A stretch of DNA of 64,000 nucleotides from Candidatus Multivorans sp. (GCA_965205295.1 OZ242167.1:3826007-3890006), one strand, 5' to 3'. Positions 10,517 through 57,747 are shown, counted from the first letter of the stretch. The notes: generated from the letters alone by a model not told the origin. Program-made: numbers and translations.

Positions 10517-11200
10517 TCAGCGCACCAGACGGTAGAGGCCTGCGAGGCGCGCGGGCTTGACGCCGGCTGCGAAGAGCAGCCAGATCAGCCAATTCGTCGC
10601 CACCGTTCGAACGACACCACGTTCGATGAATCGGCGTGACGAGGTGGTAGCGCGCCGGGAGATGATCGAGATCGATCCTTGCCGGCGGAGTCGCCGGATG
10701 AAGTCCAGGTCTTCGAGGATCGGGAGGTCGGAGAAGCCGCCGCAGCCGGCGTAGGCCGCCGCGGTGGCGAATTGCGCCTGGTCGCCCAGCGGCATACGCA
10801 GCCGGTTTGTCCGGAGATCGACCAGGCGGCGGCCCAGGCGCAGGAGTGGCGGCGCCGCTTCGAAGTCGACCAGGAAACCGCCGCCGACGGCCTTGCGGTT
10901 GACCGCTTGCTCTATCGCGGGTCGAGCCGAGACGGGGAGGCGTGTATCGGCGTGGAGGAACAGCAGCACGTCGGCGCCGGCGTCGAGCGCCAGGGCAGCG
11001 CCGGTGCGCAGTTGCAGACCGCGCCCCGGTCGCGGGGCGGTCGCTACCGTGGCGCCGGCTCGCCGCGCCAGTTCGACGGTGCGATCCCGGCTGCCTCCGT
11101 CGACGACGATCAGATCGTCGCAGTGGTTGCGGGCGGCGGCGACCGCCGCCTGCACCGCGCCCTCTTCCTCGAGCACCGGCATGACGATGGCGAGGCGCAT
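10517..11200 (-). CDS. family 2 glycosyltransferase (TIGR04283-like)
   Basis: The conserved N-terminus MRLAIVMPVLEEE and the DGGSRDRT motif are present. The longer track ORF (to 11467) overlaps moaC on the other strand. The start was set at ATG 11200 (cat at 11198-11200). Confidence 0.75.
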   Translation of the reverse strand: MRLAIVMPVLEEEGAVQAAVAAARNHCDDLIVVDGGSRDRTVELARRAGATVATAPRPGRGLQLRTGAALALDAGADVLLFLHADTRLPVSARPAIEQAVNRKAVGGGFLVDFEAAPPLLRLGRRLVDLRTNRLRMPLGDQAQFATAAAYAGCGGFSDLPILEDLDFIRRLRRQGSISIISRRATTSSRRFIERGVVRTVATNWLIWLLFAAGVKPARLAGLYRLVR

Positions 11201-25657: not shown

Positions 25658-25733
25658 GCCGGCATAGCTCAGTTGGTAGAGCAACTGCCTTGTAAGCAGT
25701 AGGTCCTCGGTTCGAATCCGGGTGCCGGCTCCA
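25658..25733 (+). tRNA. tRNA-Thr (anticodon TGT)
   Basis: The cloverleaf was folded by hand. The acceptor is GCCGGCA/TGCCGGC, the D arm AGCTCAGTTGGTAGAGC, the anticodon stem ACTGC/GCAGT with loop CTTGTAA, the T arm CTCGGTTCGAATCCGGG, and the 3' end is CCA-encoded. Confidence 0.9.
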
Positions 25734-25747
25734 CGGAGGAAGTTGCC

Positions 25748-25834
25748 GGAGGTGTGGCCGAGCGGTTAAAGGCAACAGACTGTAAATCTGTCGGGCAAAG
25801 CCCTACGGTGGTTCGAATCCATCCGCCTCCACCA
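25748..25834 (+). tRNA. tRNA-Tyr (anticodon GTA), class II with long variable arm
   Basis: The acceptor is GGAGGTG/CGCCTCC, the anticodon loop CTGTAAA, the variable arm CGGGCAAAGCCCTA and the T arm GGTTCGAATCC. The 3' end is CCA-encoded. Confidence 0.9.
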
Positions 25835-25854
25835 CTTCTTCCTTTTGCGGGCGT

Positions 25855-25929
25855 GCGGGAGTAACTCAGGGGTAGAGTCACAGCCTTCCAAGCTGTTGGT
25901 CGCGGGTTCGAATCCCGTCTCCCGCTCCA
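25855..25929 (+). tRNA. tRNA-Gly (anticodon TCC)
   Basis: The acceptor is GCGGGAG/CTCCCGC, the anticodon stem ACAGC/GCTGT with loop CTTCCAA, and the T arm GCGGGTTCGAATCCCGT. The 3' end is CCA-encoded. Confidence 0.9.
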
Positions 25930-40396: not shown

Positions 40397-41104
40397 GTGG
40401 GCGGCGATCCGATCATCTCTCTGCGCGACGTGACCAAGGTCTACCGGCAGGGCAGCGTGGACATCCACGCCCTTCGTGGCGTCTCCCTGGAAATCGAACC
40501 CGGCGAGTTCACCGCCATCTGCGGTCCCTCCGGCTCCGGCAAGACGACGAGCCTGAACCTGATCGGTGCGCTGGACTCCACGACCTCGGGTTCGATCTCG
40601 CTCGAGGGGCAGGAACTGGGCAGCCTGAACAAGAAGCAGTTGAGCGCCCTGCGCCGCGACCGGATCGGCTTCGTGTTCCAGGCCTACAACCTGATGCCGG
40701 TGCTCACGGCGTACGAGAACGCGGAGATGGTGCTTTGGGTCCAGGGCGTCGACGCGGCCACCCGTCGCGAACGGGTGATGGACCTGCTCGAACAGGTTGG
40801 GCTGAAGGGCATGGAGGATCGGCGGCCCTCCGAACTGTCGGGCGGGCAGCAGCAGCGGGTCGCGATCGCCCGCGCCATCGCCAGCAACCCGGCGGTGGTG
40901 CTCGCCGACGAGCCGACCGCGAACGTCGACTCGGAGACCGCGGAGACCCTTCTGGGCTTGATGGAGACGCTCAACCGGGAGCAGGGCGTGACCTTCCTGT
41001 TCTCGACCCACGATCCGCAAGTGATGGAACGGGCGCGCCGCGTGGTGCGCCTGGTCGATGGCAGCGTCGCGAGCGACGAACGCCGCCAGGAGCCTGCGTC
41101 GTAA
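40397..41104 (+). CDS. ABC transporter ATP-binding protein (LolD/MacB-type)
   Basis: Walker A is GPSGSGKTT, the signature LSGGQQQRVAIARA, Walker B VVLADEPT and H-loop STHD. The GTG start overlaps the permease stop. Confidence 0.88.
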   Translation: MGGDPIISLRDVTKVYRQGSVDIHALRGVSLEIEPGEFTAICGPSGSGKTTSLNLIGALDSTTSGSISLEGQELGSLNKKQLSALRRDRIGFVFQAYNLMPVLTAYENAEMVLWVQGVDAATRRERVMDLLEQVGLKGMEDRRPSELSGGQQQRVAIARAIASNPAVVLADEPTANVDSETAETLLGLMETLNREQGVTFLFSTHDPQVMERARRVVRLVDGSVASDERRQEPAS

Positions 41105-41199
41105 GACGCAGCGAAGCAAGTTCTGCGACGCGGGGTGCTGGTGAGGTGGGGGCTGGGGCCAAACAGGGAGTCTGCGACGGGTTTGGCGGCTCTGACGGG

Positions 41200-42474
41200 T
41201 TGCCCTGGCTGGCCAGCTCGGTAGCCGCGGTGCTGCTCGCGGTACTGGTAGCGGCCACGGCGGCGCCGTCGGCAGCGCAGACCGTGGTGGGCGGCGACGT
41301 GCGAATCTTTGCCTTCCAGGTCCTGGAAGAGATCGAGATCGGTGGGGACGGGGATGCTGCCGCCGAAGACGCCGGGTTGGGCGGCGCCGGCGGGGTGGAA
41401 CTCGGGATCTTCCGGCTCAAGCTCGATTCCCGCTGGCAAATGGGATCCCGAGACAGCTTCCGCCTCGAGGTGCACGGCGTGGCGCAGGCCGTGTCGCCAC
41501 CTGGCAGCGGCGCCGTCACGTCGGTGGCGACCGGCGCCACGCGGCGCTTCTTCGACCTGGAGTCCGACTCCTTTGGCCGCGGCGATGTGGCCGGCGCCGC
41601 CGAGATCGACCGCTTCAACCTGCGCTGGGACCGGCCCGGCTTCCGGATGGTCTTCGGCCGCCAGGCGATCACCTGGGGAGTGAACTACTTCTGGCCGGTG
41701 CTCGACCTGTTCGCCCCGTTCGCTCCGCAGCGCATCGATCGTGACTACAAGCCCGGAGTCGACGCGCTGCGGTTCACCGTGCCGATAGGCGACTTCTCCG
41801 AGGTCGAGGTCATCGCGGCCAGCCAGGGCGCGCGGACTCCCGACGACCTGAGCTTCGCCTCCCTGGGCCGCTTCCACAGCGAACTCGGCGAGGGCGATTC
41901 GAGCCTCGACTTCGGCTACATGGTCGGCGGCTTCCACCGCGACCTGGTCCTCGGCGGCTTCTTTTCGGCCGATGTCTGCGGCACCGGCCTGCGCGGCGAA
42001 GTCGCCTGGACCAGTCCGGGCTGCGACCCCCGGAGCGCTCACCCGGCGTTCGGCTGCGGCGACTTCTGGCGCTTCACGGTGGGCGTCGATCGCCTGCTGA
42101 CGCCGACCGTGACCCTGATCGCCGAGGCGAGCTGGAACGGCTTCGGCGCCGGCGACCCCGCGGACTACGCGCGGCTTGCCGGCGCCGACCGCGTAAGCCG
42201 TGGCGAGGTCGTTTCGCTCGGGCGCCGTTACGCCGGTCTCTCTCTGGGATGGCAGGCCCACCCGCTGCTGACCGTCAGCGGCGCCGTGCTCTTCAACCGT
42301 GGCGATTCCTCGGCGCTGTTTCAGCCCGGCATCGCCTGGTCCGTGTCCGACCACGTGGCGGTCAACGGGGGCCTGCTCCTGTCGACCGGCCGCGGCATCC
42401 GGGACGGCGTGCTGGGCAGCGAATACGGGGCGGTGCCGGTGGTGGCCTGGTCGTCCCTGACCGCCTACTTCTAG
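41200..42474 (+). CDS. putative outer-membrane beta-barrel protein (C-terminal Phe)
   Basis: A signal peptide (LPWLASSVAAVLLAVLVAATAAPSAAQ) is present. Alternating amphipathic beta-strand patterns are seen, and the C-terminus ends ...SLTAYF. The start is uncertain (TTG 41200 or GTG ~41140); the track ORF at 40735 overlaps the ATPase. Confidence 0.5.
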   Translation: MPWLASSVAAVLLAVLVAATAAPSAAQTVVGGDVRIFAFQVLEEIEIGGDGDAAAEDAGLGGAGGVELGIFRLKLDSRWQMGSRDSFRLEVHGVAQAVSPPGSGAVTSVATGATRRFFDLESDSFGRGDVAGAAEIDRFNLRWDRPGFRMVFGRQAITWGVNYFWPVLDLFAPFAPQRIDRDYKPGVDALRFTVPIGDFSEVEVIAASQGARTPDDLSFASLGRFHSELGEGDSSLDFGYMVGGFHRDLVLGGFFSADVCGTGLRGEVAWTSPGCDPRSAHPAFGCGDFWRFTVGVDRLLTPTVTLIAEASWNGFGAGDPADYARLAGADRVSRGEVVSLGRRYAGLSLGWQAHPLLTVSGAVLFNRGDSSALFQPGIAWSVSDHVAVNGGLLLSTGRGIRDGVLGSEYGAVPVVAWSSLTAYF

Positions 42475-42499
42475 AGCTCGGCGCTGCCCATCTTTACCA

Positions 42500-42560
42500 G
42501 TTGTTCACCTGCCGTGGGGTACGCTCCGCCAGCCTAAACAACTGTTCGACTACACGAGAT
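42500..42560 (+). promoter_or_regulatory. putative Pho-box-like operator upstream of pstS (inverted repeat ACCAGTTGTTCACC ... AAACAACTGTTCGAC)
   Basis: CAGTTGTT and AACAACTG are reverse complements, 25 nt apart. Each lies next to a GTTCACC/GTTCGAC half-site resembling actinobacterial PHO boxes. Location is the pstS 5' region. Confidence 0.3.
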
Positions 42561-45413: not shown

Positions 45414-46195
45414 GCGCTCCCGCGCCGGCGATCGCCGACTCCGACTTCGCGATCGACGTCGTCGACCTGGCGATTCGTTACCAGGGAAAGTTGGCGCTCT
45501 CGGGCGTCACGCTCCGGGTGCCAAGGAACGAGATCTTCGGCGTTATCGGGCCGGCGAACAGCGGCAAGACGTCCTTCCTGCGCGCCATCAACCGGATGGA
45601 CCTGATGACGGCGGGGATGACGGTCGAGGGCGCGGTGCGTGTCGAGGGCCGGGACGTCCGCAGTTGGCGCAATCCCTATGCCCTGCGACAGCGAATCGGC
45701 GTGGTGTTCCCGCTGCCTGTGGGCCTGCCGATGACCATCTACGAGAACGTCGCGCTGTCGTCCCGGCTGCGCGGCACGCGAAGGAAGGCCGACCTGGACG
45801 TGATCGTCGAACGCTGCCTGCGGCGGGCCGCGCTCTGGGACGAGGTGAAGGACCGGCTCGATTCCCTGGGCAGCCTGCTGTCGGGCGGCCAGCAGCAGCG
45901 GCTGACGATCGCGCGCGCGCTGTCCCAGGATCCGTCGATCCTGCTGCTCGACGAGTTCTCGATCGCGGTCGACCCCGTGACCACGATGCGGATCGAGGAG
46001 GTGCTGGCGGAGCTCAAGTCCGAGATGACGATCGTGCTGGTCACGAACCTCGTCCAGCAGGCGCGGCGGTTGGCTTCGCAGACCGCCTTCTTCCTCACCG
46101 GCGAGCTGGTCGAGGTGACCGAGACGGAGGCGATGTTCGAGGGCGGCGCCCAGGATCCGCGGACCACTGCCTACGTCGAGGGGAAGTTCGGATGA
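45407..46195 (+). CDS. pstB: phosphate ABC transporter ATP-binding protein PstB paralog 1 (H-loop His replaced: TNLVQQA)
   Basis: Walker A is GPANSGKTS, the signature LSGGQQQRL and Walker B LLLDEF. The canonical PstB THNMQQA H-loop reads VTNLVQQA. The GTG start overlaps the pstA stop. Confidence 0.85.
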   Translation: MVSAPAPAIADSDFAIDVVDLAIRYQGKLALSGVTLRVPRNEIFGVIGPANSGKTSFLRAINRMDLMTAGMTVEGAVRVEGRDVRSWRNPYALRQRIGVVFPLPVGLPMTIYENVALSSRLRGTRRKADLDVIVERCLRRAALWDEVKDRLDSLGSLLSGGQQQRLTIARALSQDPSILLLDEFSIAVDPVTTMRIEEVLAELKSEMTIVLVTNLVQQARRLASQTAFFLTGELVEVTETEAMFEGGAQDPRTTAYVEGKFG

Positions 46196-47007
46196 CCGAG
46201 GCAACTCCCGCGACGGGAGCGATGCCCGCGGCCGCCGATCCGGCCGCGGCGATCCTGATCGAGAAGCTGAACCTCTGGTACGGCGACTTCCAGGCCCTGT
46301 TCGACGTCGACCTGAACGTGAAGGCGGGCGCGATCACCTCCCTGATCGGCCCCTCCGGATGCGGCAAGACGACCTTGCTGCGCTCGGTCAACCGGATCAA
46401 CGAACGCCTTCCGTACGTGCGCACGTCGGGCCGCATCCGGCTGTGGGGCCTGGATGTCTACGCCCCGGCGGTCGAGCTGGCTCAGCTCCGCAAGCAGATC
46501 GGCATGGTCTTCCAGCGTCCGAACCCGTTGCCGCTGTCGGTGCGGGACAACGTGCTGTTCGGGACTCGAGTCCACCGCCCGAACGAGCGCCCGCCGACCA
46601 GGGTCGAAGGCGATCGGATCGTCGAAGAGGCGCTGCGCGAGGTTCTGCTCTGGGACGAGCTGAAGGACTCGCTCGACCGGCGCGGCACAGAACTCTCGCT
46701 CGAGCAGCAGCAGAAGCTGTGCATCGCGCGTCTGCTGCCGGTCAAGCCGAAGCTCCTGCTGATGGACGAACCCTGCTCGGCGCTCGACCCCGCCGGCACG
46801 GAGGCGGTCGAGGAGCTGATCTGGAGGCTGCGCGGCGAGTACACGATTCTGATCGTTACCCACAACATGGCGCAGGCCCGGCGCGCGAGCGAGGAGTGCG
46901 TGTTCATGCTGCTCGGCGAGATGGTCGAGCACAGCGACACGGCGTCGATGTTCCTCAACCCGGCAAACAGCCAGACTGCGGCCTACATCGAGGGTCGGTA
47001 CGGGTAG
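46192..47007 (+). CDS. pstB: phosphate ABC transporter ATP-binding protein PstB paralog 2 (canonical H-loop THNMAQA)
   Basis: Walker A is GPSGCGKTT, the signature LSLEQQQKL, Walker B LLLMDEP and H-loop VTHNMAQA. The ATGA start overlaps the pstB1 stop. Confidence 0.88.
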   Translation: MTEATPATGAMPAAADPAAAILIEKLNLWYGDFQALFDVDLNVKAGAITSLIGPSGCGKTTLLRSVNRINERLPYVRTSGRIRLWGLDVYAPAVELAQLRKQIGMVFQRPNPLPLSVRDNVLFGTRVHRPNERPPTRVEGDRIVEEALREVLLWDELKDSLDRRGTELSLEQQQKLCIARLLPVKPKLLLMDEPCSALDPAGTEAVEELIWRLRGEYTILIVTHNMAQARRASEECVFMLLGEMVEHSDTASMFLNPANSQTAAYIEGRYG

Positions 47008-47074
47008 CTGGCGGCGTGCCCAGCGTTCCGCGCGACGAAACGGGACCTGACGAAGCCATTTCCACAGGGATCCG

Positions 47075-47533
47075 TCAGCAGTTTCTCCCCCGGAATTCTC
47101 CCGCGGCCTCCGCGCTCCGTACCCATGCCGCGACATCGTCAATCAAGTGCACGAATCTGCGTTTCCCCGGCCCGCGCAGCGCGCATTCCCATACCGTCAG
47201 GCAACGCCATCCCGCCACGCGCAGCGCATTCCGAACCTCTGCGTCACGTTCTTGGTTGCGCCGGATCTTGCCGTCCCAGAAGTCCGTTCTGGTGGCCGGA
47301 CGCTGGAATAGCGGACAATCGTGCCCGTGCCAGAAGCACCCGTGAACCAAGACGGCGGCACGGAACCGTGGCAGTACGATATCCGGCTTGCCGGGCAGCT
47401 CCGCCACATGGGTGCGATACCTGAATCCGCGCGCATGGAGCGCTTTCCGGACCGCCATTTCCGGTGCCGTGTTCTTGCTTCGCACCGAGGCCATAAGGCG
47501 GCTTCGCGAACGCCGGTCCAGGCTGTCGGCCAC
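47075..47533 (-). CDS. vsr: very-short-patch-repair endonuclease Vsr
   Basis: The 152-aa product has FVHGCFWHGHDC and TDFWDGKIRRN(QE)RD motifs. It is the last gene of the minus-strand array dcm-X-Y-vsr. GTG start. Confidence 0.88.
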   Translation of the reverse strand: MADSLDRRSRSRLMASVRSKNTAPEMAVRKALHARGFRYRTHVAELPGKPDIVLPRFRAAVLVHGCFWHGHDCPLFQRPATRTDFWDGKIRRNQERDAEVRNALRVAGWRCLTVWECALRGPGKRRFVHLIDDVAAWVRSAEAAGEFRGRNC

Positions 47534-47568
47534 GAAGCGCTCCTCCTTGCTGGGAAGGTTCCTGGGCC

Positions 47569-48588
47569 CTAAAGACGAATGTCCGGCTGGCCTTGACGTG
47601 CGTAGAACGAGGAAAACCTGGAGATGATGTCTTTGATGAAACTCGGAGCGATGCGCACGTTCAAGGACTGAAAGCTCCTTTCAAACCCCTCCCACGGTGC
47701 CGTCTCGAGCCGTCGAAAATCTACGAAGCCGGCCGCTATGCCACCAGACTGCGGCAACCAGTGGAAGTAGTTGGAGTCGTTGTTCTTCCTCAACCGCTTC
47801 TGGCGCTTGCGGTCCGCTCCTACTCTCTCGAACAGGGCTTCCTCAGGCACGACTTCCGCCACCACCACGATGTCAGTCTTGGGCTTTCCGCTGGGTCGAA
47901 TCACTAGGTCGCATGCGGGCGTCATCACCACGTGAGAAGTCTCTCCATCCGTCCGCCGAACAAGGGTCCCCGTCTGCAGCGAGTCCTTAAGTGGCGGGGC
48001 CAGGTACACTTCCTCGGCGTAGCAAGGCGTTTCATCCGCCTCCAACTCCGCCGCCAAGTGGCCCAGGGTGTAGCGCAACAGCGCCTTCTTGGTCCGCTCC
48101 TTATCCTCTCGCCCATAGTCCACCCACATGTCGATCGTCGGAAGCAGGTTCGCTAGGAAGACTCCGTTCAGTCGTTCCTCCAACAGCCCCCGGCCGCCCA
48201 TGATCTCGGTCAGGCCGACGTCGAAAATCTCCCAGAGGCGGTCCAAGATCTCGTCGAACCCATGTTTACCCTTGGTGTAGACACCGACGACGGGCGGCTC
48301 ATCTACCGCGTCGGCGGGCGTTCCTGTCAGGACCGCGACCGGAACGCGGAAGTGGCTCTTGAGCTCTTCAATGACCTCTCCACCGTCGGAGGTGTCCCTG
48401 CCTAGGTTCAGGTCGACGATAGCTGCGTCAATCGACCCGTCCAGACTGCTCTTCGCATCGGCCAAGGTTGTCTGAACACGCATCTCTATCTGCCGGCCGT
48501 GCTCTTCGACGTAGTCCTTGAGAACCTCTCGGTATTCATCCACCAAGCTGGGCTCGTCCTCCACCAACAGCAGTTCAAGCGCACTCAC
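47569..48588 (-). CDS. response-regulator receiver (REC) domain protein with ~220-aa C-terminal domain of unknown function (candidate effector)
   Basis: The REC landmarks are LLLVEDE (acidic pocket), AAIVDLNLG (phospho-acceptor Asp), VAVLTG (Thr) and YTKGKH (Lys). The C-terminal half (…PACDLVIRPSGKPKTDIVVVAEVVPEE…NYFHWLP…) matches no family recognisable by eye. The GTG start with a GGAGAA RBS overlaps the upstream kinase stop (GTGA). Confidence 0.75.
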   Translation of the reverse strand: MSALELLLVEDEPSLVDEYREVLKDYVEEHGRQIEMRVQTTLADAKSSLDGSIDAAIVDLNLGRDTSDGGEVIEELKSHFRVPVAVLTGTPADAVDEPPVVGVYTKGKHGFDEILDRLWEIFDVGLTEIMGGRGLLEERLNGVFLANLLPTIDMWVDYGREDKERTKKALLRYTLGHLAAELEADETPCYAEEVYLAPPLKDSLQTGTLVRRTDGETSHVVMTPACDLVIRPSGKPKTDIVVVAEVVPEEALFERVGADRKRQKRLRKNNDSNYFHWLPQSGGIAAGFVDFRRLETAPWEGFERSFQSLNVRIAPSFIKDIISRFSSFYARQGQPDIRL

Positions 48589-50756
48589 GCCGGTTCTCCA
48601 TCTTCTGCACCGCCGGTGTCGACGGGCTGAAGCCGGAACCACGCGCCACCTTCGTGCTCCATGGCCTTTAGTTCCAGGCCGTTTCTAGTCGCTGCTTCCC
48701 CGGCAATCGCGAGTCCCAGCCCCATGCCGTCCGGCTTCGTCGAGAACTGCGGCTCGAAGACCACTCCGCTCACGATGTGTTCAGGTTCGATTCCAGGACC
48801 CGTGTCAGTGTAGTCAACGTGCAGCAACCTCTCGTCGTCGGTCGAGATCGCTATCTCTATGCGCTTTTCGGCAGCCTTGGTTGTGTGTAGCCAGTAGAGG
48901 CTGTTGTCGATCAGGTTCGTGAAGATCGCTTGAATGTCCTGCCGCCAGCATGGGTACTTGACCGATCTATCGCCGACAATGCGGCAAGTCACACCCGCTC
49001 GGTCCAATTCTCCAGAAAACGTATCCTGAGCGCGCCGGATGACCCTGAGCAACACTTCCGACTTCCTGCGGGAACGACGTTGCGCCGCCAACGGATCAAG
49101 CCGGCCGAACAGCGTTACCAAGTCGCTCGCGTTCTCCGCTATGCCCGTTGCCCCATCCACTATCTTCGGCACTAGGATCGGGTCGCGCGTCTTCTCGAAG
49201 CGAGTGGCGTGTTTCCGGAGGAGCGGGAATTGGTTGCGGAAGTAGCTCAACGGCCGGCGGCCCTCGTGGAGCACGACGTTGATGATCTTGCCCAGTGTCG
49301 CCTGGCCTTGGTACACCGCAATCGCGTCGCGCAATCGCCTGACAGTCTCGCTTCGCTGCTGCTCTTCGGACTCGATCAGGGCGATCACTTCGGCAGCGGT
49401 CGTGTCGCTCACCCGGGCTCCGCGTAGCGTAGACCGGACTTCGCGCTTCAGAGCATCGAAGGAGTAGAGCCTCTCCAGTTGGCGCTCGACTTTGAACGTC
49501 TTCCTGCCCAAGCCGGCGCGCTGCCGGTACAAGTAGCGTTTCTCCTCCAGCCTGGCGATCACTTTCGTGGTGATGTCCTTCAGCCGGCCGAAGGCCTCGT
49601 TATCGATGAGTCCGTCCCTCGCGCTCTTCTCGATAAGCTGCGATTGTTCTTCCGACTGGATCTGGACGTAGCCGATGACTTGGTTGTTGCCGATGCGAAA
49701 GGCGGGCCTCTGCACGCGCTGCTCGTTGAGTTTGAGCCAGTCGAACTCGGGATCGCCCAGCGGGCGCAGGCGGAATCCGTTCCTGTACACGCCGATACCG
49801 TTGTATTTGTTCAATAGTTGTCGTGTTTGAAGCCTGCCTAAGTAGTTCCCGAGGGCGTCCTTCAACCCACGGCGAATGAGCTGGTCCACCGAGGCTGGAT
49901 CCCGGTCGTAAACCCGAATATCGATCTCAAGCTCCCCGCACCCGGAAGGCCCTTCTAAGTCAATGAGGATCTCTTCGTCCACCGCGTTTCGCGACTTTTG
50001 CTGAGAGTACACGACGGACCCAGTTCCGTCGGCCCCTATCTTGCCCGCGATCCGATAGTCGAAGTGTTCAACGAGCGGAAAGGGTTCCACCTGAGCGTTC
50101 ATATCGTGCACGCCAGGCAGGTCGGAGATGCGGAGAACTACGTCAAAGGGCTGCTCGGTCGCCATTGTCAAAAAGGGAGACATCAGCTTCCTGAGCTCGA
50201 ACTGCAGCTTGTTGAACTGTGAGTCGCTCCAAGGCGGAAGGCTCTTCTCGTCGACGGCCATGGTCAGCGTCGTTCCTGCCTCCTGCTCGACTGACTCCGT
50301 CTCGATCAGGATCTCCACGTCCTCCAGATACTCGGCGCGCTCGAAATCGGCCCATTGGAGGTAGAGGGTGGTCTTCTCTCCAGAGGCCGTCGTTGTCTCT
50401 AGGAGAAGGTCCTTGCCAAGGATCGAGGCTGCGTAGCGGCCGATTCCCTTCCGGCCCTGCATGGTCCTGCCAGCCGGGCTGTGGCCGTCCCGGTGATCTT
50501 TGTCCGGTGTTGACGGGACCATCCACTTGTTGATGACCGTGTCGCGCGTCATGCCGTGGCCGTGGTCGGCGAACTTGATCTGAAACTCGCCATTGCCGGT
50601 CCGCTCGAACGCGATTACCGCGTCCGGCGAGTCTGCGTCGTAGGCGTTCTTGACGAGCTCGATGACCGCCGCATGCGGATCCTGGACCAAGTCGCGTCCG
50701 ATCGTCAGGATGTGCCGTCCGGCGGGCCGGATCCTGTATGAGCCAGACTTAGGCAT
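48585..50756 (-). CDS. fusion protein: N-terminal Bergerat-fold GHKL ATPase (MutL/MORC-like) + C-terminal histidine-kinase core (H-box, N/G1/G2 boxes)
   Basis: The N-terminal motifs are ELVKNAYDA (motif I), DHGHGM (motif II) and GRKGIGRYAA (GxxGxG). The C-terminal H-box is VLHEGRRPLSYF. About 110 aa later come the N-box NLIDNSLYW, G1 DTGPGI and G2 GMGLGL. The ATG at 50756-50754 overlaps the last codons of dcm. Confidence 0.75.
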   Translation of the reverse strand: MPKSGSYRIRPAGRHILTIGRDLVQDPHAAVIELVKNAYDADSPDAVIAFERTGNGEFQIKFADHGHGMTRDTVINKWMVPSTPDKDHRDGHSPAGRTMQGRKGIGRYAASILGKDLLLETTTASGEKTTLYLQWADFERAEYLEDVEILIETESVEQEAGTTLTMAVDEKSLPPWSDSQFNKLQFELRKLMSPFLTMATEQPFDVVLRISDLPGVHDMNAQVEPFPLVEHFDYRIAGKIGADGTGSVVYSQQKSRNAVDEEILIDLEGPSGCGELEIDIRVYDRDPASVDQLIRRGLKDALGNYLGRLQTRQLLNKYNGIGVYRNGFRLRPLGDPEFDWLKLNEQRVQRPAFRIGNNQVIGYVQIQSEEQSQLIEKSARDGLIDNEAFGRLKDITTKVIARLEEKRYLYRQRAGLGRKTFKVERQLERLYSFDALKREVRSTLRGARVSDTTAAEVIALIESEEQQRSETVRRLRDAIAVYQGQATLGKIINVVLHEGRRPLSYFRNQFPLLRKHATRFEKTRDPILVPKIVDGATGIAENASDLVTLFGRLDPLAAQRRSRRKSEVLLRVIRRAQDTFSGELDRAGVTCRIVGDRSVKYPCWRQDIQAIFTNLIDNSLYWLHTTKAAEKRIEIAISTDDERLLHVDYTDTGPGIEPEHIVSGVVFEPQFSTKPDGMGLGLAIAGEAATRNGLELKAMEHEGGAWFRLQPVDTGGAEDGEPA

Positions 50757-52011
50757 GCCAATCCTCTCGGATCCGGGCCGCGATCCCGCGGGACAAGAGC
50801 ACGGGGACTGCGTTGCCGATCTGGCGAAACGCGTGTGTCCGTGACGGCCGCAGCCCGACGCCTTCGAAGTAGTAGTCGTCGGGAAAGGTCTGCAGCCGCG
50901 CCGCCTCCCGCGGCGTGATGGACCGGTTCTGTTCAATGTCGGGGTGAATGTAGTAGTGACCATCCTTGCAGATGTGGGCGACCACGGTGTGCGCGAACGG
51001 CAAGTTTCCCGCCACGACCTTGAACCTGTCCATGAACGCGGCCTTGTTCCGGTGGGTCTTGAGGTGCGGCGGCAATGTGCTGTATCGCAGCCTGGATCGC
51101 CGTTCGTTCCACTCCGTCACCGCTATACGGTAAATCTCGAGATCCCGCTCCGTATGAGGGCGCGCCTGATGCCAAGTCAACGGCAGCGAGCCGCTGACAC
51201 CCGCCTCGACTTGCCACGTGCTCTTGCACGGCAGGCGATGGCACGGCGCGACATCGCCTTCTCCGGCACTAAGCGGGGGCAGGCCCCCGAAGGCCTCGCT
51301 CACGGTGACATCCGGCGCCCACCGCCTCGGCTCAGGGTAGACAGCCGTGCTGCCTTCGCAATGCCCGACCAAGACCACACGTCTCCTGTTCTGCAGCACT
51401 CCGTAGTCCTTCGCGCTCAGGATGCGAAAGCGAGTGTCGTAGCCTAGCTTGCTGAACAAGCGCCGCATGGCGTCCAAGTAACTCGCCCCGTCGCGGTCCT
51501 TGGCCGAAAGAAGCCCAAGGACGTTCTCGAACACGAACACCTTGGGGCGGTACTTCTCCAAGAACTTCGCATAGCACTTGTAAAGGTGATTTCGGTTGTC
51601 CGCCACCATGCCCTTGGGGTCGCGAGAGCGACCGACGATGGAGTAGGCTTGGCAGGGAGGGCCGCCGATGAGCAGGTCCAGTTCGTGCCCGTCCAACCGG
51701 GAGTCGATCTCGCCGTAGATCCGCCGCAAAGTGTCTGGCCGTATCTCCTCGTTGATGACAGAGCGCACAACCTGTTGCGGCACTGCCGCGTACAGCATGT
51801 CCCGGTCGATACTGCCTGCTAGGTAGTCCGCGTACACGTCCTCACGACCGGCTGCTACGAGCCAGTGATAGGCCATTCGGGTACGCAGGGTGTTGCATGC
51901 CGCCGCATCCGTCTCGACATGCGCGATGGGCTGGTAGCCCTCCTGTATGAAACCTTCCGAGAGTCCGCCGCCGCCAGCAAAAAGGTCGACGAAACTCAAT
52001 CGATTACGCAT
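50749..52011 (-). CDS. dcm: DNA (cytosine-5)-methyltransferase (Dcm-like)
   Basis: The C5-MTase motifs are I FVDLFAGGGG, IV GGPPCQAYS, VI ENV and X QIGNAVPV. The start was set at ATG 52011 (MRNRLSFVDLFAGGGG) with an AAGGAA RBS. The track TTG start is at 52041. Confidence 0.88.
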   Translation of the reverse strand: MRNRLSFVDLFAGGGGLSEGFIQEGYQPIAHVETDAAACNTLRTRMAYHWLVAAGREDVYADYLAGSIDRDMLYAAVPQQVVRSVINEEIRPDTLRRIYGEIDSRLDGHELDLLIGGPPCQAYSIVGRSRDPKGMVADNRNHLYKCYAKFLEKYRPKVFVFENVLGLLSAKDRDGASYLDAMRRLFSKLGYDTRFRILSAKDYGVLQNRRRVVLVGHCEGSTAVYPEPRRWAPDVTVSEAFGGLPPLSAGEGDVAPCHRLPCKSTWQVEAGVSGSLPLTWHQARPHTERDLEIYRIAVTEWNERRSRLRYSTLPPHLKTHRNKAAFMDRFKVVAGNLPFAHTVVAHICKDGHYYIHPDIEQNRSITPREAARLQTFPDDYYFEGVGLRPSRTHAFRQIGNAVPVLLSRGIAARIREDWHA

Positions 52012-52198
52012 TCCGGCTGGTTCCTTTGTTCGCACGCTCAAACTCCGCCGATTGTAGACGAGCCAGCGTGACGGCCGATCCTAGCAGGTCACGGGCGCGT
52101 CTCCAGTCATCGAGTCGCTTGCCGCGCTCGTCGCTGGAGGGAAAACTAGGGGATCTTTTCAAAACAAAGGCTCCCGACGGCAATTGCGAGAGGCTCCC

Positions 52199-55100
52199 TT
52201 ACGCCGGTCGTGTTGGTTTGCCGCCGTGGACCGTTGGTTCCGCGCACCACTGGCGACGGAGCAGGTCCAGTGGATCGAGCAGTTCGTTCGGCAGGCCAAG
52301 CACGTCGATCAACACTGCCCGGTCAAGCGCGATGCGGTTCTCGTCGCGGTAGGCCTCGTTGGCGGGCAGGAACGCGGCTTGGCGGAACCCCTCCAGCAAG
52401 CTGGCCGCCTGGGTGATCTGCTTCTCGTCCAGCGCCCGCGGGTCGAGTACGGGGAGTCGAGGAAGCCTGCTGATCGTCAGTATGACACGGCCCTGCTGCT
52501 GCCGGCTCCCGTGCCACCAGAAGGTCATCATGCCCAAGGTGGTGTTTGCCCACAGCAGCACGGCGGACGACCAAGCCTCGTCTTCCAGCTTGAAGTTGGG
52601 CCAAGCCCTGCCGCCCAGCGTCTTGCGCCGCGTCACGCAGGCGGCGAGGGGCTGCGAGTTCAGTTGGAAGTCGAGGCTGAAGTGGAGTCGACTCGCGGTC
52701 CGCCGCCAGGTTCGTGCGGCCCGGTCTGCACAGTTCGGCCGTGGCTGCCCGAAGGAATCCGGCTCGATCTCCAGATGCCGTTCCCGCGCCGCATCATGGC
52801 TCCATAGCGCCGGATAGGTCGGCACTCGACCTTCTTCCCAGGGACGAATGTCGAACGGACCGCGCGGCGGCTTGTCCTCTCCGGGAGGAGTGCCGTTGAT
52901 GTCCCTGTGAACCAGGCCGCGACTGCCGATGGAACCCAGTGGCGCGACCGGGGTCCGGTGTTCCTGCGAGAGCCGGGGCAGGACAAGCCTTCCGTCGTCA
53001 AGAGCTAGCATCGTCCGAGCGAGACCTGGTTCGACGATCGATGCTGCGCCCCCGTTGGTCAGGCCGGTGCGCACGAAAGTGCCGCTCGTCTGGCAGGGCG
53101 TGAGCTCGATCAAGCCCGTGCCTCCGGGGAGATCGCGTATTCGGCGAGCTACGCTGACGGCCTCCAGAACCGTCCGCGGCCGCTTCCGCAGGCTGGCGAA
53201 CAGGGTTTCCGGACCTTGGAGGGGGATTCTCGCTACAGAGCCGAGAGCCTTGGTGCCGACGAGGAGCACCTCAGCCATGCCCGTGTCAGCGGAGAAAGCG
53301 CGGTCGGTCGTCCCCGTAGCGGCGATGGAGACAACGGTCAGATCGCTGAAGAACCCGGCGAGGAGACGACGCGCGGCGTTCCAGGATTCCCCCTGGACAA
53401 ACGAGGCGGGCAGCACAAGGGCCAGGATGCCGCCTGGGCGCAGCTTCAGGTGGGCTAGGTCGACGAAGTTCGACGCCAAGCCGGCGTTGCCGTGCCCGGC
53501 GGAAATCTCCAGCCCGGCTCTCAGTTCCTTCAAACGCCGTGACATCACCCGCTGCTCTTCGGCGCTGGTCGCGAAGCCCGCGAAGGACGGGACAGGAACA
53601 TCCGTGGACTCGTGGTTTGTTGGCCGCGTGAAAGGCGGGTTCATGATGACGAGATCGAAGCTCTCGTTCGGCACCTCCACGATCTTCGGGTCTACGGTCG
53701 ATGCGCCGCCGTGAAGCTCGACGACTCCGGTGTCGAATAGAGGCAGCACACGCTCGTCCGCCAGCAGGTCCAGCGAGCCGATGGCATGCCGACCGCCGCC
53801 TTGCTCTGCTTCGCCGTAGGGCATGGTGTAGATGCGCGTTCGTTTGAAAGGTTGCTGCGGATGGGCGCTGGAGAGAATCGCTGCCGTCAGGTGCGTCGCT
53901 GCCGGCATGATGTCGGCGCCGGTCAACACCTGCTCCATCATCTCGTGGTGGAGCTTCCGGTCGTCGCGTCCGGCCCGCCGCAGCCTTGCGCCCACCCGGT
54001 GCTGGACCGCCGACAACAGGGCGCCGGTGCCGCATGCGAAGTCGGCGATTCGCAGGCGCGCTACCGCTGCTTCGTCGGCCCAGTCGACGTTGAGTCTGGC
54101 GGCCGCCAGTTCGGCAAGCAGGTGAGCGCTGGCTGGGAGCGTGTAGAAGGTGGCCAGGAACTTCCGGTCGCTGATCAGGCGCTGGAACAGAATGCCCGAC
54201 AGATCCTGGATCGTGGTGGCGCCGAGACCCGCGAGTTGAGACGCAGCGTCGATCAGTCTGCCAAGGCACTGCTCAGTCTCACGCTCCGGGATCACCCTCA
54301 GCACGTCGTAGGCGATCTCGAAGATCGGCCAGTAGTCGATGTCGAGCACCTGCTCCCAGGCCCGCAGAACGCGCCTCTTCGAGGTGTTCCCGTGCTTGCT
54401 GCTCAGAGCACTCAAGTCAGGGATGTCCTGGACTCCCGCTATGGCGGACTGAAACAGCAGCGCGTCGAGCAGGATTGCCATCGCCATGCGGGTGGTCTGC
54501 TCGCAGTCTTCCTGGTGTAGAGCGCTTGCAATCCGGCGCAGAACCTCCGGACTGCGGTCGGGTGCCGATCGTCGAAGCCGCTCCGCAGTGGTTCGGACCG
54601 CCCGTTCGAGCAGTTCCAGCCCCTCAGCAATTCGCTGTTCCGAGAGGGACACCTGTTCGACGCAGTCGGCAAGTTCGTCGATTCCGCCTTCAAGCCAATC
54701 GCTTCCGGGCCAGCGTTGAACCGCGCGGCCTTCAAGGGGCGAGCCGGAGAAGGTGCACCATCGGAAACGCCCAGACAGGATGCCGGGACCAAGGTCGCCG
54801 CCGCCTTCGCCCAGATGACCGGGGATGCGCACCGCTAAAACCGCCTCAAGGAGGTCGCCCGTGTCGTGCAACACGCGGCCCAGTCGATTCTTCGCGTCGT
54901 CTTCAACGGTGCGCGCTGGCTCGTACTCGGTCTCCAGGACGACCGGCATGCCGGCTGGGGGCCGCACGACAATGTCCGGTTGGGCACCCGCGTACTCCCT
55001 GATCACTCCCGTTTCTTCGGCCGCTATCCTCCACGAGTCAGGGAGTTTCCGGCTGAGTACGGTAGCCAGGGCGTTGTTGAACGCGGTCTCGACGGTGCGG

Positions 55101-55237
55101 GGCACGGATGCCCGATCATACGGGGTACATCCAACGGTCCGCGCATGTGGGCCCGACAGGAGGGGCTTTGTGGACCAATGGAGCCCGTACCCGATCAGTC
55201 GCGGCCCTGTGAGCATGGAGCGGCTCGGCTGTGCCAT
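52199..55237 (-). CDS. large N6-adenine DNA methyltransferase-domain protein (Type IIG/IIL or BREX-PglX-like; possible N-terminal PD-ExK-like nuclease)
   Basis: The ~1010-aa product has motif I IADFACGTGALL and motif IV VIMNPPF about 115 aa later. The N-terminal ~280 aa contain QPDIVV...VLETEYE. A long C-terminal region is TRD-like. The start was set at ATG 55237, 35 bp from the divergent ATPase gene. Confidence 0.65.
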   Translation of the reverse strand: MAQPSRSMLTGPRLIGYGLHWSTKPLLSGPHARTVGCTPYDRASVPRTVETAFNNALATVLSRKLPDSWRIAAEETGVIREYAGAQPDIVVRPPAGMPVVLETEYEPARTVEDDAKNRLGRVLHDTGDLLEAVLAVRIPGHLGEGGGDLGPGILSGRFRWCTFSGSPLEGRAVQRWPGSDWLEGGIDELADCVEQVSLSEQRIAEGLELLERAVRTTAERLRRSAPDRSPEVLRRIASALHQEDCEQTTRMAMAILLDALLFQSAIAGVQDIPDLSALSSKHGNTSKRRVLRAWEQVLDIDYWPIFEIAYDVLRVIPERETEQCLGRLIDAASQLAGLGATTIQDLSGILFQRLISDRKFLATFYTLPASAHLLAELAAARLNVDWADEAAVARLRIADFACGTGALLSAVQHRVGARLRRAGRDDRKLHHEMMEQVLTGADIMPAATHLTAAILSSAHPQQPFKRTRIYTMPYGEAEQGGGRHAIGSLDLLADERVLPLFDTGVVELHGGASTVDPKIVEVPNESFDLVIMNPPFTRPTNHESTDVPVPSFAGFATSAEEQRVMSRRLKELRAGLEISAGHGNAGLASNFVDLAHLKLRPGGILALVLPASFVQGESWNAARRLLAGFFSDLTVVSIAATGTTDRAFSADTGMAEVLLVGTKALGSVARIPLQGPETLFASLRKRPRTVLEAVSVARRIRDLPGGTGLIELTPCQTSGTFVRTGLTNGGAASIVEPGLARTMLALDDGRLVLPRLSQEHRTPVAPLGSIGSRGLVHRDINGTPPGEDKPPRGPFDIRPWEEGRVPTYPALWSHDAARERHLEIEPDSFGQPRPNCADRAARTWRRTASRLHFSLDFQLNSQPLAACVTRRKTLGGRAWPNFKLEDEAWSSAVLLWANTTLGMMTFWWHGSRQQQGRVILTISRLPRLPVLDPRALDEKQITQAASLLEGFRQAAFLPANEAYRDENRIALDRAVLIDVLGLPNELLDPLDLLRRQWCAEPTVHGGKPTRPA

Positions 55238-55272
55238 GATGCCGTCATATTTCCCGGAACAATGACGGCGAC

Positions 55273-56433
55273 ATGTACAACGAACCCTATCCCCGACTCT
55301 CCCGCCTTCCGGGTCGGAGCTTCTTCCTGCTCGGCGTCCGAGGGGTCGGCAAGAGCACTTGGGCCCGGCAGAACCTCGGCGACGCTCACCGGGTTGACCT
55401 GCTAGACGAAGCGCGCTTTCACGACTACTTGGTCGATCCGGCGTTGTTCGCGGCGGAACTGCGGTCGGTTCCACCCGGAGGCTGGGTGGTGGTCGACGAG
55501 ATTCAGCGCCTGCCGAACCTGCTGAACGAGGTTCATCGGTTCATCGAAGGGCATCGGCTCCGCTTTGCACTCCTCGGGTCCAGCGCCCGAAAGCTGAAGG
55601 CGGCTGGAGTCAACCTGCTGGCGGGGCGAGCGCTGCGCCGGATGATGCACCCTCTGACGCCGGCGGAACTCGGCCGCGAGTTCGACTTCGAGGCCACACT
55701 TCGATGGGGAACCATTCCACTCGTTTGGACCGCCGAGGACCGGCGCGCGACGCTCGAGAGCTATGTGCAGCTCTACCTCCGTGAGGAGATCCGGGCCGAG
55801 GCACTGGTGCGGAATCTGGCCGGCTTCGCCCGTTTCCTGCAGGTTGCCGCTCTCTGTCATGGAGCCACCGTCAACGTGTCGGGCATCGCGCGCGAGTGCG
55901 GCGTCGCCCGAACCACCGTGCAGGGATACCTGGACATCCTGGAAGACACCCTGCTGGCGTACAGGCTGCCAGCCTTCGAAGCGAAGCTGCGCGTGCGCGA
56001 GCGCCGTCACCCGAAGCTCTACTGGGTCGACCCGGGGCTCGTTCGGGCGACGAAGCGGCTTTTCGGTCAGGTCGCGCCCGAGGAGCGCGGAACGCTCCTC
56101 GAGGGATGGGTGCTGCACCTGCTCCGAGCGCACGGGGAGGAGACCGACCTGTACGAGGCGGTCCACTACTGGAGCCCGCACTCCGCGGCCCACACTGAGG
56201 TGGACTTCCTCCTGCGCCGTGGCCGCGAGTTACTGGCGATCGAAGTGAAGTCCCAGGCCAGGTACCACACGGGTCTGCTCCGCGGCTTGCGCGCGGTGGC
56301 CGAACTGGCCGGCATGAGCCGGAGGATCCTCCTGTACGGCGGCAGGCGATCGTTTCGCACCGAAGACGGTATTGAAGTTTGGACGTTCGACGATCTGCAC
56401 CAGGCATTGGCGGAGGATGCGCTCTGGCCGTGA
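55273..56433 (+). CDS. AAA-family ATPase with C-terminal DUF4143 (AAA_14/DUF4143 family)
   Basis: Walker A is LLGVRGVGKST and Walker B VVVDEIQ. The C-terminal DUF4143-like region is RRHPKLYWVDPGL. Confidence 0.75.
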   Translation: MYNEPYPRLSRLPGRSFFLLGVRGVGKSTWARQNLGDAHRVDLLDEARFHDYLVDPALFAAELRSVPPGGWVVVDEIQRLPNLLNEVHRFIEGHRLRFALLGSSARKLKAAGVNLLAGRALRRMMHPLTPAELGREFDFEATLRWGTIPLVWTAEDRRATLESYVQLYLREEIRAEALVRNLAGFARFLQVAALCHGATVNVSGIARECGVARTTVQGYLDILEDTLLAYRLPAFEAKLRVRERRHPKLYWVDPGLVRATKRLFGQVAPEERGTLLEGWVLHLLRAHGEETDLYEAVHYWSPHSAAHTEVDFLLRRGRELLAIEVKSQARYHTGLLRGLRAVAELAGMSRRILLYGGRRSFRTEDGIEVWTFDDLHQALAEDALWP

Positions 56434-56541
56434 TGGGGTCAGTCGGCCTGGACCGCTTGCAGCCTCGGCCAGGCCGCGGCTCGGCTCGCTGTGGCATCAT
56501 CGACCGCTGTTCCGGAATACGCGTCGAATGGGAGGCAAGGT

Positions 56542-57747
56542 ATGGGCAGGTACGGTCTGACGGACGAAGTGATCGGCCTGCGCGAGCAGATGCGCGCGTT
56601 CATCGACGGAAAGGTGATTCCGGCCGAGCCGGACCTGGAGTCGGAAGAGGACCGCGCCCGCGGCCGGATGGCCGAACTCAAGACGTTGGCCAAGCAGCGG
56701 GGGTTGTGGGCGCTTGGGCACCCGGCGGAGATCGGCGGCGGGGGGCTGCCGCTCATGTCCTTCGTCTACCTGAACGAGATCATCGGCCGCTCCCACTACG
56801 GCCAGGTTGCGGTTGGCTCGGCGTCGATGCAGGACTCGATCATGCTCCACCTGTACGCCAACGAGGAGCAGAAGGAGCGCTGGCTCAAGCCCCTCGTGGC
56901 GGGCGAGATCTACCCCTCGGTCGGTCTCACGGAGCCCGAGGTGGCCGGCTCCGATCCGACCCTGATGCAGACCCGGGCGGTGCTCGACGGCGACGACTGG
57001 GTGATCAACGGCCACAAGTGGTTCACCAGCGGCGCCAGCCGGGCCGCGTTCACGACCTGCTTCGCGCTCACCGAGCCGGAAGCCCAGGGCCACCGCAAGT
57101 TCTCCTCGATCATCGTGCCGACGGACACGCCGGGCTATGAGATCGTGCGCGCGGTGCCGACGATGGGCACCACCGCCGGCCAGCACTGCGAGGTGCGCTA
57201 CAACGACGTCCGGGTGCCGAAGGACAACCTTCTCGGCGGCCGCGGCGAGGGCTTCGTCATCGCCCAGCAGCGCCTTGGGCCCGGTCGCATCTTCCACTGC
57301 ATGCGGTGGCTGGGGCAGGCCCAGCGCGCCTTCGAGTTGATGTGCGAGCGTGCCAAGACCCGGTGGGCGCACGGCTCCTACCTGTCCGAGAAGGGCGAGA
57401 TCCAGCGCTACATCGCCGAGTCGGCGGCCGAGATCCAGGCTGCGCGGCTGATGACCCTGGACGCCGCCGAGGCGATGGACCGCGGCGGCCGGGCGCGGGT
57501 GGAGATCTCCCTGATCAAGTTCTGGGGCGCGCGGATGCTCCACAACGTGATCGACCGGGCGATCCAGGTCCACGGAGCGCTCGGCGTGACCGGCGACACG
57601 CCGCTTGAGAAGATGTACCGCGAGGCGCGTTACGCGCGCCTCTACGACGGCCCGGACGAGGTCCACCGCATGGTCGTGGCGCGGCGCATCCTGCGCGATC
57701 CACAGGGCCGGGTGCCCTGGGGCACGTTGGGCGGTGGAGAAAGCTAG
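56542..57747 (+). CDS. acyl-CoA dehydrogenase
   Basis: LTEPEVAGSDPTLMQTRA and a FAD/substrate-binding region are present, with a C-terminal QVHGALGVTGDTPLEKMYREAR. The RBS is GGAGG. Confidence 0.88.
   Translation: MGRYGLTDEVIGLREQMRAFIDGKVIPAEPDLESEEDRARGRMAELKTLAKQRGLWALGHPAEIGGGGLPLMSFVYLNEIIGRSHYGQVAVGSASMQDSIMLHLYANEEQKERWLKPLVAGEIYPSVGLTEPEVAGSDPTLMQTRAVLDGDDWVINGHKWFTSGASRAAFTTCFALTEPEAQGHRKFSSIIVPTDTPGYEIVRAVPTMGTTAGQHCEVRYNDVRVPKDNLLGGRGEGFVIAQQRLGPGRIFHCMRWLGQAQRAFELMCERAKTRWAHGSYLSEKGEIQRYIAESAAEIQAARLMTLDAAEAMDRGGRARVEISLIKFWGARMLHNVIDRAIQVHGALGVTGDTPLEKMYREARYARLYDGPDEVHRMVVARRILRDPQGRVPWGTLGGGES

Follow-up and report, generated by a model that had tools for sequence, protein, structure and literature searches.

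A probably long-lived, variable locus between pstB2 and an acyl-CoA dehydrogenase gene of Candidatus Multivorans, and a response-regulator-like protein in it with a predicted MazF/CcdB-like fold

In a 64,000-nucleotide stretch of the Candidatus Multivorans sp. genome (GCA_965205295.1 OZ242167.1:3826007-3890006; hereafter the window, numbered from its first letter), the phosphate-transport genes pstS-pstC-pstA-pstB1-pstB2 are separated from an acyl-CoA dehydrogenase gene (ACAD) by a block of about 9.4 kb (47008-56490). An initial annotation, made from the sequence, had described this block as a single low-GC island of DNA-modification and defence genes inserted after pstB2, perhaps at the expense of phoU. 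Its reading of the interval as an accessory one was confirmed. The interval encodes Vsr, a response-regulator-like receiver (REC) protein (RR), a histidine-kinase-like protein (HK), the C5-cytosine DNA methyltransferase Dcm, a large N6-adenine methyltransferase-like protein (N6MT) and a divergent AAA/DUF4143 ATPase. The questions raised were whether these genes arrived together and recently, and what they may do. Taken as a whole, the evidence makes it probable that the block is a long-lived mosaic accessory locus in a variable pstB2/ACAD hotspot, not a new insertion, and that it consists of three functionally independent modules, namely 1) a strongly low-GC dcm-HK-RR-vsr operon (47075-52011), 2) N6MT, and 3) the DUF4143 ATPase; that it predates the split from two related lineages carrying it (L088 and L090) and was lost, eroded or replaced in others, including the closest one (L004); and that phoU never stood after pstB2 at this site.

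Scanning of a genome collection with pstB2 assigned the window to 'Candidatus Multivoraceae', in the class Thermoanaerobaculia of the Acidobacteriota; the nearest locus was that of a Ca. Multivorans chromosome (L004; 95-97% amino-acid identity). Both anchors of the site were well conserved, pstB2 being 88-96% identical in the loci L001-L011 and ACAD 91-96% in relatives. Nucleotide homology to all relatives stopped at 47003-47017, no more than 10 bp from the pstB2 stop codon, in agreement with the initial placement of the left border, and restarted at 56472-56490 (L006, L007, L009 and L011), or at 55213-55231 where the DUF4143 gene was kept. Between pstB2 and ACAD, the relatives contained 1) nothing in L009, where the gap of about 216-250 bp provides the empty site that the initial annotation had proposed looking for, 2) DUF4143 and a 175-bp N6MT remnant (10934-11105) in L008, 3) a low-GC DUF3800 gene and DUF4143 in L004, 4) a YceI-monooxygenase gene, a frameshifted N6MT, PIN and DUF4143 in L010, 5) cytochrome P450/SRPBCC genes in L006, L007 and L011, together with PIN/MazE in L007, 6) vsr-RR-HK-dcm-N6MT-PIN/MazE-DUF4143 in L088/L089 (a 4.97-Mb ENA contig), and 7) vsr-RR-HK-dcm-N6MT-PIN/MazE followed by P450 genes in L090/L091 (JGI metagenomes); P450/SRPBCC genes also followed pstB2 in L001, a locus that ends before ACAD. 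There were thus at least six distinct fillings, comprising restriction-modification (R-M) genes, PIN/MazE, DUF4143, DUF3800 and P450s, and the block of the window was missing at the collinear site in L004, L006, L007, L009 and L011 and present there in L088/L089 and L090/L091. Conserved flanks enclosing differing, largely defence-related cargo in relatives are what defines a variable defence hotspot, and the alternative cargos (R-M, toxin-antitoxin and candidate-defence genes) are those of defence-island hotspots, but a metabolic P450/SRPBCC cluster is among the cargo here, and no integrase or recombinase is present. It was also noticed that the N6MT orthologue of L010 (L010:13802-16800) is broken into two overlapping open reading frames (ORFs), with stops in the continuous frame, which reflects either a decaying gene or a sequencing error in a metagenome-assembled genome (MAG). 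An apparent N6MT remnant in L004 was rejected, as it was the antisense of the DUF4143 5' end inside an over-long ORF.

L088/L089 and L090/L091 likewise have vsr-RR-HK-dcm-N6MT between pstB2 and ACAD, which contradicts a recent or private insertion. The island proteins of the window were 72-93% identical to those of L088/L090 (Vsr 87-93%, Dcm 84-86%, HK 78%, RR 72-74%, N6MT 72-73%), and the values for the flanks were 90-93% for pstA, pstB1, pstB2 and ACAD and 75-81% for the ceramidase-like gene. Since the synonymous-codon identity in the same comparisons was 0.56-0.71 for island genes and 0.70-0.79 for the well-conserved flanks, there was no sign of recent transfer. Uniform composition of the same block, in the same place in relatives, had been named in the initial annotation as a finding that would speak against an island; the block was indeed found there, but its composition was not uniform, the GC dip being retained in L088/L090 (about 0.58-0.63 over dcm to RR, with hosts at about 0.68). 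In these two lineages the cassette (dcm-HK-RR-vsr) showed no visible amelioration, though its divergence equals or exceeds that of the flanks.

Nor did the parts of the block behave as one island, because DUF4143, N6MT and the dcm-HK-RR trio differed in distribution. N6MT occurred without the cassette in L010 and as the 175-bp remnant in L008, and the trio occurred without N6MT in other phyla. The DUF4143 gene beside ACAD was 97%, 84%, 86.5% and 86% identical at the amino-acid level in L004, L008, L010 and L088, respectively, and its synonymous identity to L004 (0.92) was that of the flanks; the DUF4143 ATPase, which belongs to the PADLOC candidate-defence family PDC-S01, is a semi-core gene beside ACAD in this clade. 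The varied fillings, the same block in L088/L090 and the tracking of the flanks by DUF4143 together lead to the reading of the site as a mosaic hotspot, of the block as old and of the 'island' as composite.

The base composition was likewise divided. The mean GC content of the window was 67.8%, and 54 one-kb windows outside 47-56.5 kb had a mean of 0.686 (standard deviation 0.020, minimum 0.642). The one-kb windows of 47001-52000 ranged from 0.599 to 0.623 (z -3.2 to -4.5), and those of 52001-56000 from 0.649 to 0.658 (z -1.5 to -1.9). Tetranucleotide L1 distance, calculated in 5-kb windows, peaked at 0.317 over 47001-52000 against an outside mean of 0.125 (standard deviation 0.014; z 13.8) and was back at background by 53-58 kb, and the 15 500-nt windows with the lowest GC in the 64 kb all fell inside 47501-52200. 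The local GC drop noted at the outset was therefore real, including the two stretches singled out then (0.576 for 47580-47900 and 0.596 for 52040-52200). GC content at third codon positions (GC3) was 0.73-0.80 in the six island genes and 0.75-0.94, mostly 0.82-0.94, elsewhere (Mann-Whitney p 1e-4). The deviation thus falls into two tiers: from vsr to dcm it is strong, and in N6MT and DUF4143 it is mild. Features of mobility were not found, as first noted: none of the Pfam matches of any island gene was an integrase or transposase domain, repeats bounding 47008-56490 were limited to chance-level pairs, and the nearest tRNA was 25.9 kb from the block. Among the hallmarks of a classical integrative genomic island, atypical composition was thus present, and an integrase or recombinase, a tRNA target and flanking direct repeats were not.

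The absence of phoU from the end of the pst operon had raised the suspicion that the insertion displaced or replaced it. A tblastn search with E. coli PhoU, a probe validated by strong, consistently placed matches in more than 55 loci, gave no match to phoU in the window, nor in the pst loci retrieved for the 11 close relatives (L001-L011). In more distant dual-pstB operons (L012-L080), a phoU homologue lay between pstS and pstC, at about 6000-7000 in each. The empty-site locus L009 leaves no room for phoU after pstB2, and neither a downstream phoU in relatives nor a remnant here points to an operon that once ended in it. Displacement of phoU is therefore not supported.

Four accounts of the block can be weighed on these data. 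That a single foreign island of about 9.4 kb was recently inserted after pstB2, displacing or replacing phoU, would agree with the atypical composition, the empty site of L009 and the lack of the cassette in L004; it is nevertheless very improbable, given the shared block and position in L088/L089 and L090/L091 (7-28% amino-acid divergence), the differing distribution of the modules, the co-divergence of DUF4143 with the flanks, and the phoU results for the window, the 11 close pst loci and the distant operons. Alternatively, the low GC may have nothing to do with foreign origin and result from gene-specific constraint or from codon bias being relaxed in defence genes of low expression, to which the persistence of the dip after long residence in L088 and L090 and the lowered GC3 in all island genes, semi-core DUF4143 included, would lend weight; the size of the tetranucleotide deviation, the scatter of cassette homologues over phyla and plasmids, and the empty or otherwise filled sites in relatives make this improbable too. 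A stronger competitor, still somewhat unlikely in our view, is repeated acquisition of the cassette, with the conserved flanks (pstB2 and DUF4143/ACAD) serving for homologous recombination, as at defence-island hotspots. The presence of the cassette is patchy with respect to flank identity, being absent from the closest relative, L004, and present in the more distant L088 and L090, its low GC persists, and a contig described below (L081) joins a 98%-identical island to another left flank; on the other hand, island genes were no more similar than flanks among the window, L088 and L090, the remnants of L008 and the frameshift of L010 point to decay in place, and one loss in L004 is equally parsimonious. 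Long residence as a mosaic locus remains the account we prefer. Counting against it are that vertical inheritance and repeated recombinational acquisition become separable only with a species tree, and that it does not account for GC staying low across so much divergence. As an island, the locus is an ordinary defence/accessory hotspot of an uncultured acidobacterial lineage; what it offers is a clean natural series, in which one site is seen empty, full, eroded and replaced across relatives, and the demonstration that a defence block can stay in one place and keep its low GC while its flanks diverge by about 10%.

The metagenomic contig L081 (ENA ERZ28669063 ctg48708), the gene calls of which were used to refine the gene coordinates, carries in L081:1-18924 the equivalent of window 46393-56488 at 98% nucleotide identity, with an RR that is 100% identical. 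To the left of window 46393, which lies inside pstB2, it continues into unrelated DNA with genes for 543-aa, 185-aa and 1816-aa FGE-sulfatase/WD40 proteins, and it ends exactly at the island/ACAD junction. Either the assembly of this contig is chimeric, or strains differ by a rearrangement at the borders of the island.

Turning to the genes of the low-GC module, dcm and HK overlap by 8 nt and HK and RR by 4 nt, and vsr lies 35 bp further on; for this reason the four were regarded as one operon. A promoter scan, which does not cover Acidobacteriota promoters, returned 0 promoters and no sigma-70 consensus, and a terminator scan predicted fewer terminators than the shuffle mean. Vsr and Dcm both had curated family matches above threshold. 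The arrangement corresponds to a two-component-system-like (TCS-like), R-M-associated system described computationally by Bellieny-Rabelo, Pretorius & Moleleki 2021 (Genome Biol Evol 13:evab024; PMC8011034), in which a C5-methyltransferase gene is followed by a gene for a HATPase_c_3 + HEF_HK + HATPase_c protein, one for a Response_reg_2 protein and, often directly downstream, vsr; its authors suggested that paraMORC ATPases gave rise to a two-component-like system, to which they assigned no function. The association of paraMORC with Dcm and Vsr had been reported earlier (Iyer, Abhiman & Aravind 2008; PMC2292703). The window shares with the PMC8011034 system the gene order, the 'group 1' kinase architecture, the soluble kinase, the REC-like protein without a known output domain, the upstream C5-methyltransferase, the Vsr directly downstream and the setting among other R-M genes. 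HATPase_c_3, a DHp domain with invariant H497-E498 and HATPase_c were all present in HK, and the gene order was the same in the window, L081, L088 and L090. In contrast, the published host list does not include Acidobacteriota, and no fold was assigned there to the C-terminal half of RR. Beyond these two papers, the literature yielded nothing on a REC-MazF or an anti-phage two-component R-M system. Both the hotspot type and the TCS-like system were already known, and what goes beyond the literature that was found is a MazF/CcdB-fold output domain predicted for RR.

The system is widespread. A word-indexed search with RR gave 540 matches, and an exhaustive profile search at least 1409 clusters at 50% identity, of which 411 fell below 1e-30; nearly all members were unannotated or labelled 'hypothetical protein' or 'response regulator'. 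HK and RR were adjacent in every sampled context, usually preceded by a C5-methyltransferase gene, the dcm-HK-RR contexts including a gammaproteobacterial MAG (L082), a distant genome (L083), the MAGs L084-L086, Bryobacterales, and two plasmids (L092 and L093). The other neighbours of the trio varied from context to context (XhoI/N4-N6 methyltransferase, ResIII/methyltransferase, or none), and as no nuclease gene was consistently linked across the sampled contexts, the trio looks self-sufficient. On the Enterobacter mori plasmid NZ_CP119171.1 (L092), the HK-RR pair adjoins an AbiJ-NTD4 gene; a blastn search with the Enterobacter homologue gave no match in E. coli genomes. Campylobacter conjugative MOBP/MPF_T plasmids carried HK-RR homologues in 39 records including C. 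armoricus pCA639-1 (L093), and in this plasmid, the only one of them inspected, a convergent DNA cytosine methyltransferase gene lies beside HK-RR. The plasmid pairs were annotated only as 'sensor histidine kinase' plus 'response regulator' or 'hypothetical protein'. The window therefore holds a well-preserved example of a widespread, under-studied TCS-like R-M-associated system that occurs on Campylobacter conjugative plasmids as well.

In HK, the Bergerat motifs of the N-terminal GHKL head (E33, N37, D40/D42; D64xGxG; G101xKGxGR) are intact. The head matched MORC3 (7e-6) and MutL over positions 27-96 in a profile search against the PDB, and matched NF050001, the N-terminus of the BbrUII/HgiDII restriction enzymes, with 1e-12. 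In the PDB profile search, the C-terminal 260 residues (positions 459-715) matched the FixL/HK853 kinase core with 2e-15. H497, E498, R500 and P502 and both sets of ATP-binding motifs did not vary among 9 homologues, the most distant at 36% identity, and the H-box LHEGRRPL and the N, G1, F and G2 boxes were invariant down to the 36%-identical Campylobacter homologue. No hydrophobic segment was visible by inspection of the sequence, and PADLOC gave only a weak REase_II match at the N-terminus. A Bergerat-fold ATPase with intact motifs at the N-terminus and linkage to Dcm/Vsr are features in common with the paraMORC/MORC GHKL ATPases (PMC2292703) and the BbrUII/HgiDII Type II enzymes; unlike these, the head is fused here to a class-I histidine-kinase core with a REC partner, and not to a C-terminal nuclease, TIR domain or partner helicase. 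In RR, the Pfam match to REC was sub-threshold (21 bits), the domain being nearer to the canonical PF00072. The canonical phosphorelay residues are present in both partners, i.e. the H-box His and the N/G1/F/G2 boxes of the kinase, and the acidic pair, phospho-acceptor Asp, Thr and Lys of REC, so that a functional His-Asp relay is well supported by conservation.

The C-terminal domain of RR was predicted by AlphaFold to form an SH3-like barrel followed by a C-terminal helix, which is the topology that characterizes MazF/Kid/CcdB-type proteins. No helix-turn-helix (HTH) or other DNA-binding output domain was detected in RR by Pfam or fold search, and no PADLOC model matched it. The domain has an invariant set of its own (PACDL..R, N269, H276, K319-D320 and YARQGQP). 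Its likeness to a MazF/CcdB-fold effector is one of predicted fold, and the conserved helical hairpin between REC and this domain could act as a cis-inhibitor. An initial guess from the sequence, that the RR C-terminus is a PD-(D/E)xK domain, found no support in the fold search. A 571-aa protein, P0244, joins a partial C5-cytosine methylase (Pfam 57-192) to the C-terminal MazF-fold domain of RR without a REC domain, and may be a true methylase-effector fusion or a gene-calling artefact.

From these domains the most likely mechanism can be tentatively sketched, in which Dcm would mark host (self) DNA and the MORC/MutL-type GHKL head of the kinase would keep watch on DNA or on how it is modified. 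The kinase would autophosphorylate H497 and pass the phosphate to D59 of the REC protein, and the phosphotransfer would switch the MazF/Kid/CcdB-fold domain of RR on or off, possibly via the helical hairpin, with this toxin-type domain serving as the effector in place of a restriction nuclease. Vsr would repair the T:G mismatches arising from 5-methylcytosine (5mC) deamination and so limit the mutagenic cost of 5mC. If so, the trio might be a nuclease-free, methylation-based immunity or addiction module, in which the MORC-like head reads the DNA modification state and signals it through the His-Asp relay; the relay would gate a receiver-fused toxin domain for which the hairpin is the built-in antitoxin, giving a hybrid of R-M and abortive infection that acts by growth arrest and not by cleavage. 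We regard this scheme, in its entirety, as a possibility with less than an even chance; its value lies in giving a concrete, testable mechanism, through the predicted MazF/CcdB-fold output domain, to a family annotated only as 'hypothetical protein' or 'response regulator'.

Several observations weigh against the toxin-relay scheme, which was drawn from domain content. The AlphaFold model of the toxin-fold domain was built from 22-31 sequences; the hhalign comparison of the RR C-terminal profile with E. coli MazF gave a non-significant E of 0.29; RR had no PemK or CcdB Pfam match; the catalytic Arg of MazF was not conserved at the aligned position; and no small upstream gene that could encode an antitoxin was found in any of the nine contexts. 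The domain thus differs from the MazF/Kid(PemK)/CcdB superfamily, including the type III toxins ToxN/AbiQ/CptN, in profile similarity, catalytic Arg and antitoxin gene, and also in being fused to REC and a helical hairpin. Furthermore, the window proteins and distant homologues, enterobacterial and Campylobacter ones among them, gave no match at E<=10 to PF19191 (HEF_HK) or PF19192 (Response_reg_2) in a library that may lack these models; the window system may therefore be a sister clade of the published families, unless the models are indeed absent. Another view, suggested in PMC8011034, is that HK/RR is a regulator that responds to a cue from the cell (e.g. NTP level) by adjusting how strongly adjacent R-M genes are expressed or how active their products are, and other R-M genes are often close by. 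Because RR lacks any DNA-binding output, a purely regulatory role is less likely; moreover, the adjoining R-M genes differ in each context, several contexts consist of the trio or the pair only, and the output domain is predicted to have a toxin-type fold. We consider this regulatory view unlikely.

The second module, N6MT, had been called Type IIG-like. It has more than 2500 homologues of about 965-972 aa, a length from which its start is more likely to lie nearer 55108. Invariant positions are P80 D81 and E95 T96 E97 (an N-terminal PD...ETE), D392-G398 (DxACGTG) and N526-F529 (NPPF). The order of FxGxG followed by NPPF is that of the gamma class, and motifs I and IV of Type IIG/IIL enzymes are both present; in the N-terminal motif the third position has no Lys. 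The match to Eco57I (PF07669; E 5e-4) scored 20.6 bits, below the gathering score of 25.3. PADLOC MTase_II (5e-13) and mad2 (3e-9) were matched, curated MAD2 only below threshold (E 0.006), and against the PDB a single-sequence search gave no match and a profile search only E of about 0.05 to BrxX/PglX. In unrelated defence islands N6MT is solitary, beside dcm/HaeII, PIN, SIR2, SMC-like ATPase or GmrSD genes. It is like the Type IIG/IIL enzymes (Eco57I, MmeI, BpuSI) and BREX PglX/BrxX in its size of about 1000 aa, gamma-class motif order, N-terminal PD motif and solitary position in defence islands, but unlike them in the sub-threshold Eco57I match, the E of 0.05 to BrxX, a PD...ExE in place of ExK and the absence of BREX partner genes. 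The early designation remains plausible and suits the layout of N6MT, in which the nuclease is putative; N6MT may be a single-chain Type IIG/IIL-like enzyme.

The identification of the third module as a divergent AAA/DUF4143 ATPase was upheld by its Pfam matches (Table 1). It was noticed that its C-terminus (window 56280-56340) contains a PD-(D/E)xK-like motif (...EVDFLL...LLAIEVKS...), which suggests an ATPase-nuclease fusion.

Table 1. Coordinates of the genes and of the intergenic spacer between pstB2 and ACAD in the window
Feature	Position	Strand	Matches and remarks
pstB2, second ABC ATPase gene of the pstSCAB1B2 operon; left anchor of the variable site	46192..47007	+	ABC_tran 3e-27
vsr, very-short-patch T:G mismatch endonuclease; last cassette gene	47075..47533	-	Pfam Vsr (PF03852) 9e-31, 106 bits; PADLOC Vsr 5e-36; TIGR00632 4e-43
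RR, response-regulator-like protein, 339 aa (P0001)	47569..48588	-	N-terminal REC, helical linker, C-terminal domain with predicted MazF/Kid/CcdB-like fold
HK, soluble histidine-kinase-like protein, 723 aa	48585..50756	-	HATPase_c_3 (2e-18), uncharacterised middle, DHp with H-box, HATPase_c (3e-17)
dcm, C5-cytosine DNA methyltransferase, 420 aa; first cassette gene	50749..52011	-	PF00145 2e-52, 179 bits; PADLOC DrmMII-type 1e-156, MTase_II 5e-96; TIGR00675 2e-47
Spacer from N6MT stop to dcm start; presumed cassette promoter	52012..52198		GC 0.60; A/T-rich at about 52140-52170
N6MT, large stand-alone gamma-class N6-adenine methyltransferase-like protein	52199..55216	-	1005 aa as called in L081
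AAA_14 + DUF4143 ATPase, 386 aa, divergent from N6MT	55273..56433	+	PF13173 3e-15; PF13635 2e-33; PADLOC PDC-S01 3e-52
ACAD, acyl-CoA dehydrogenase; right anchor of the variable site	56491..57747	+	Four Acyl-CoA_dh Pfam domains

To the right of the block, ACAD is followed by a ceramidase-like gene and an S9 peptidase gene. About 5 kb beyond the empty site of L009, after the S9 peptidase gene, another m5C system was found (L009:16038-19824), in which vsr is accompanied by a dcm divided between two ORFs and by a gene for a 506-aa HATPase_c_3 (paraMORC-type) protein without a kinase core. A tRNA-Thr/Tyr/Gly cluster is located at window 25658-25929 and has no relation to the island. To the left, an ABC ATPase gene and pstS are about 1.4 kb apart (window 41104-42500); this interval contains a long ORF (40735-42474, plus strand) with no Pfam match, and relatives have an unannotated gene of about 410-430 aa at the matching position upstream of pstS.

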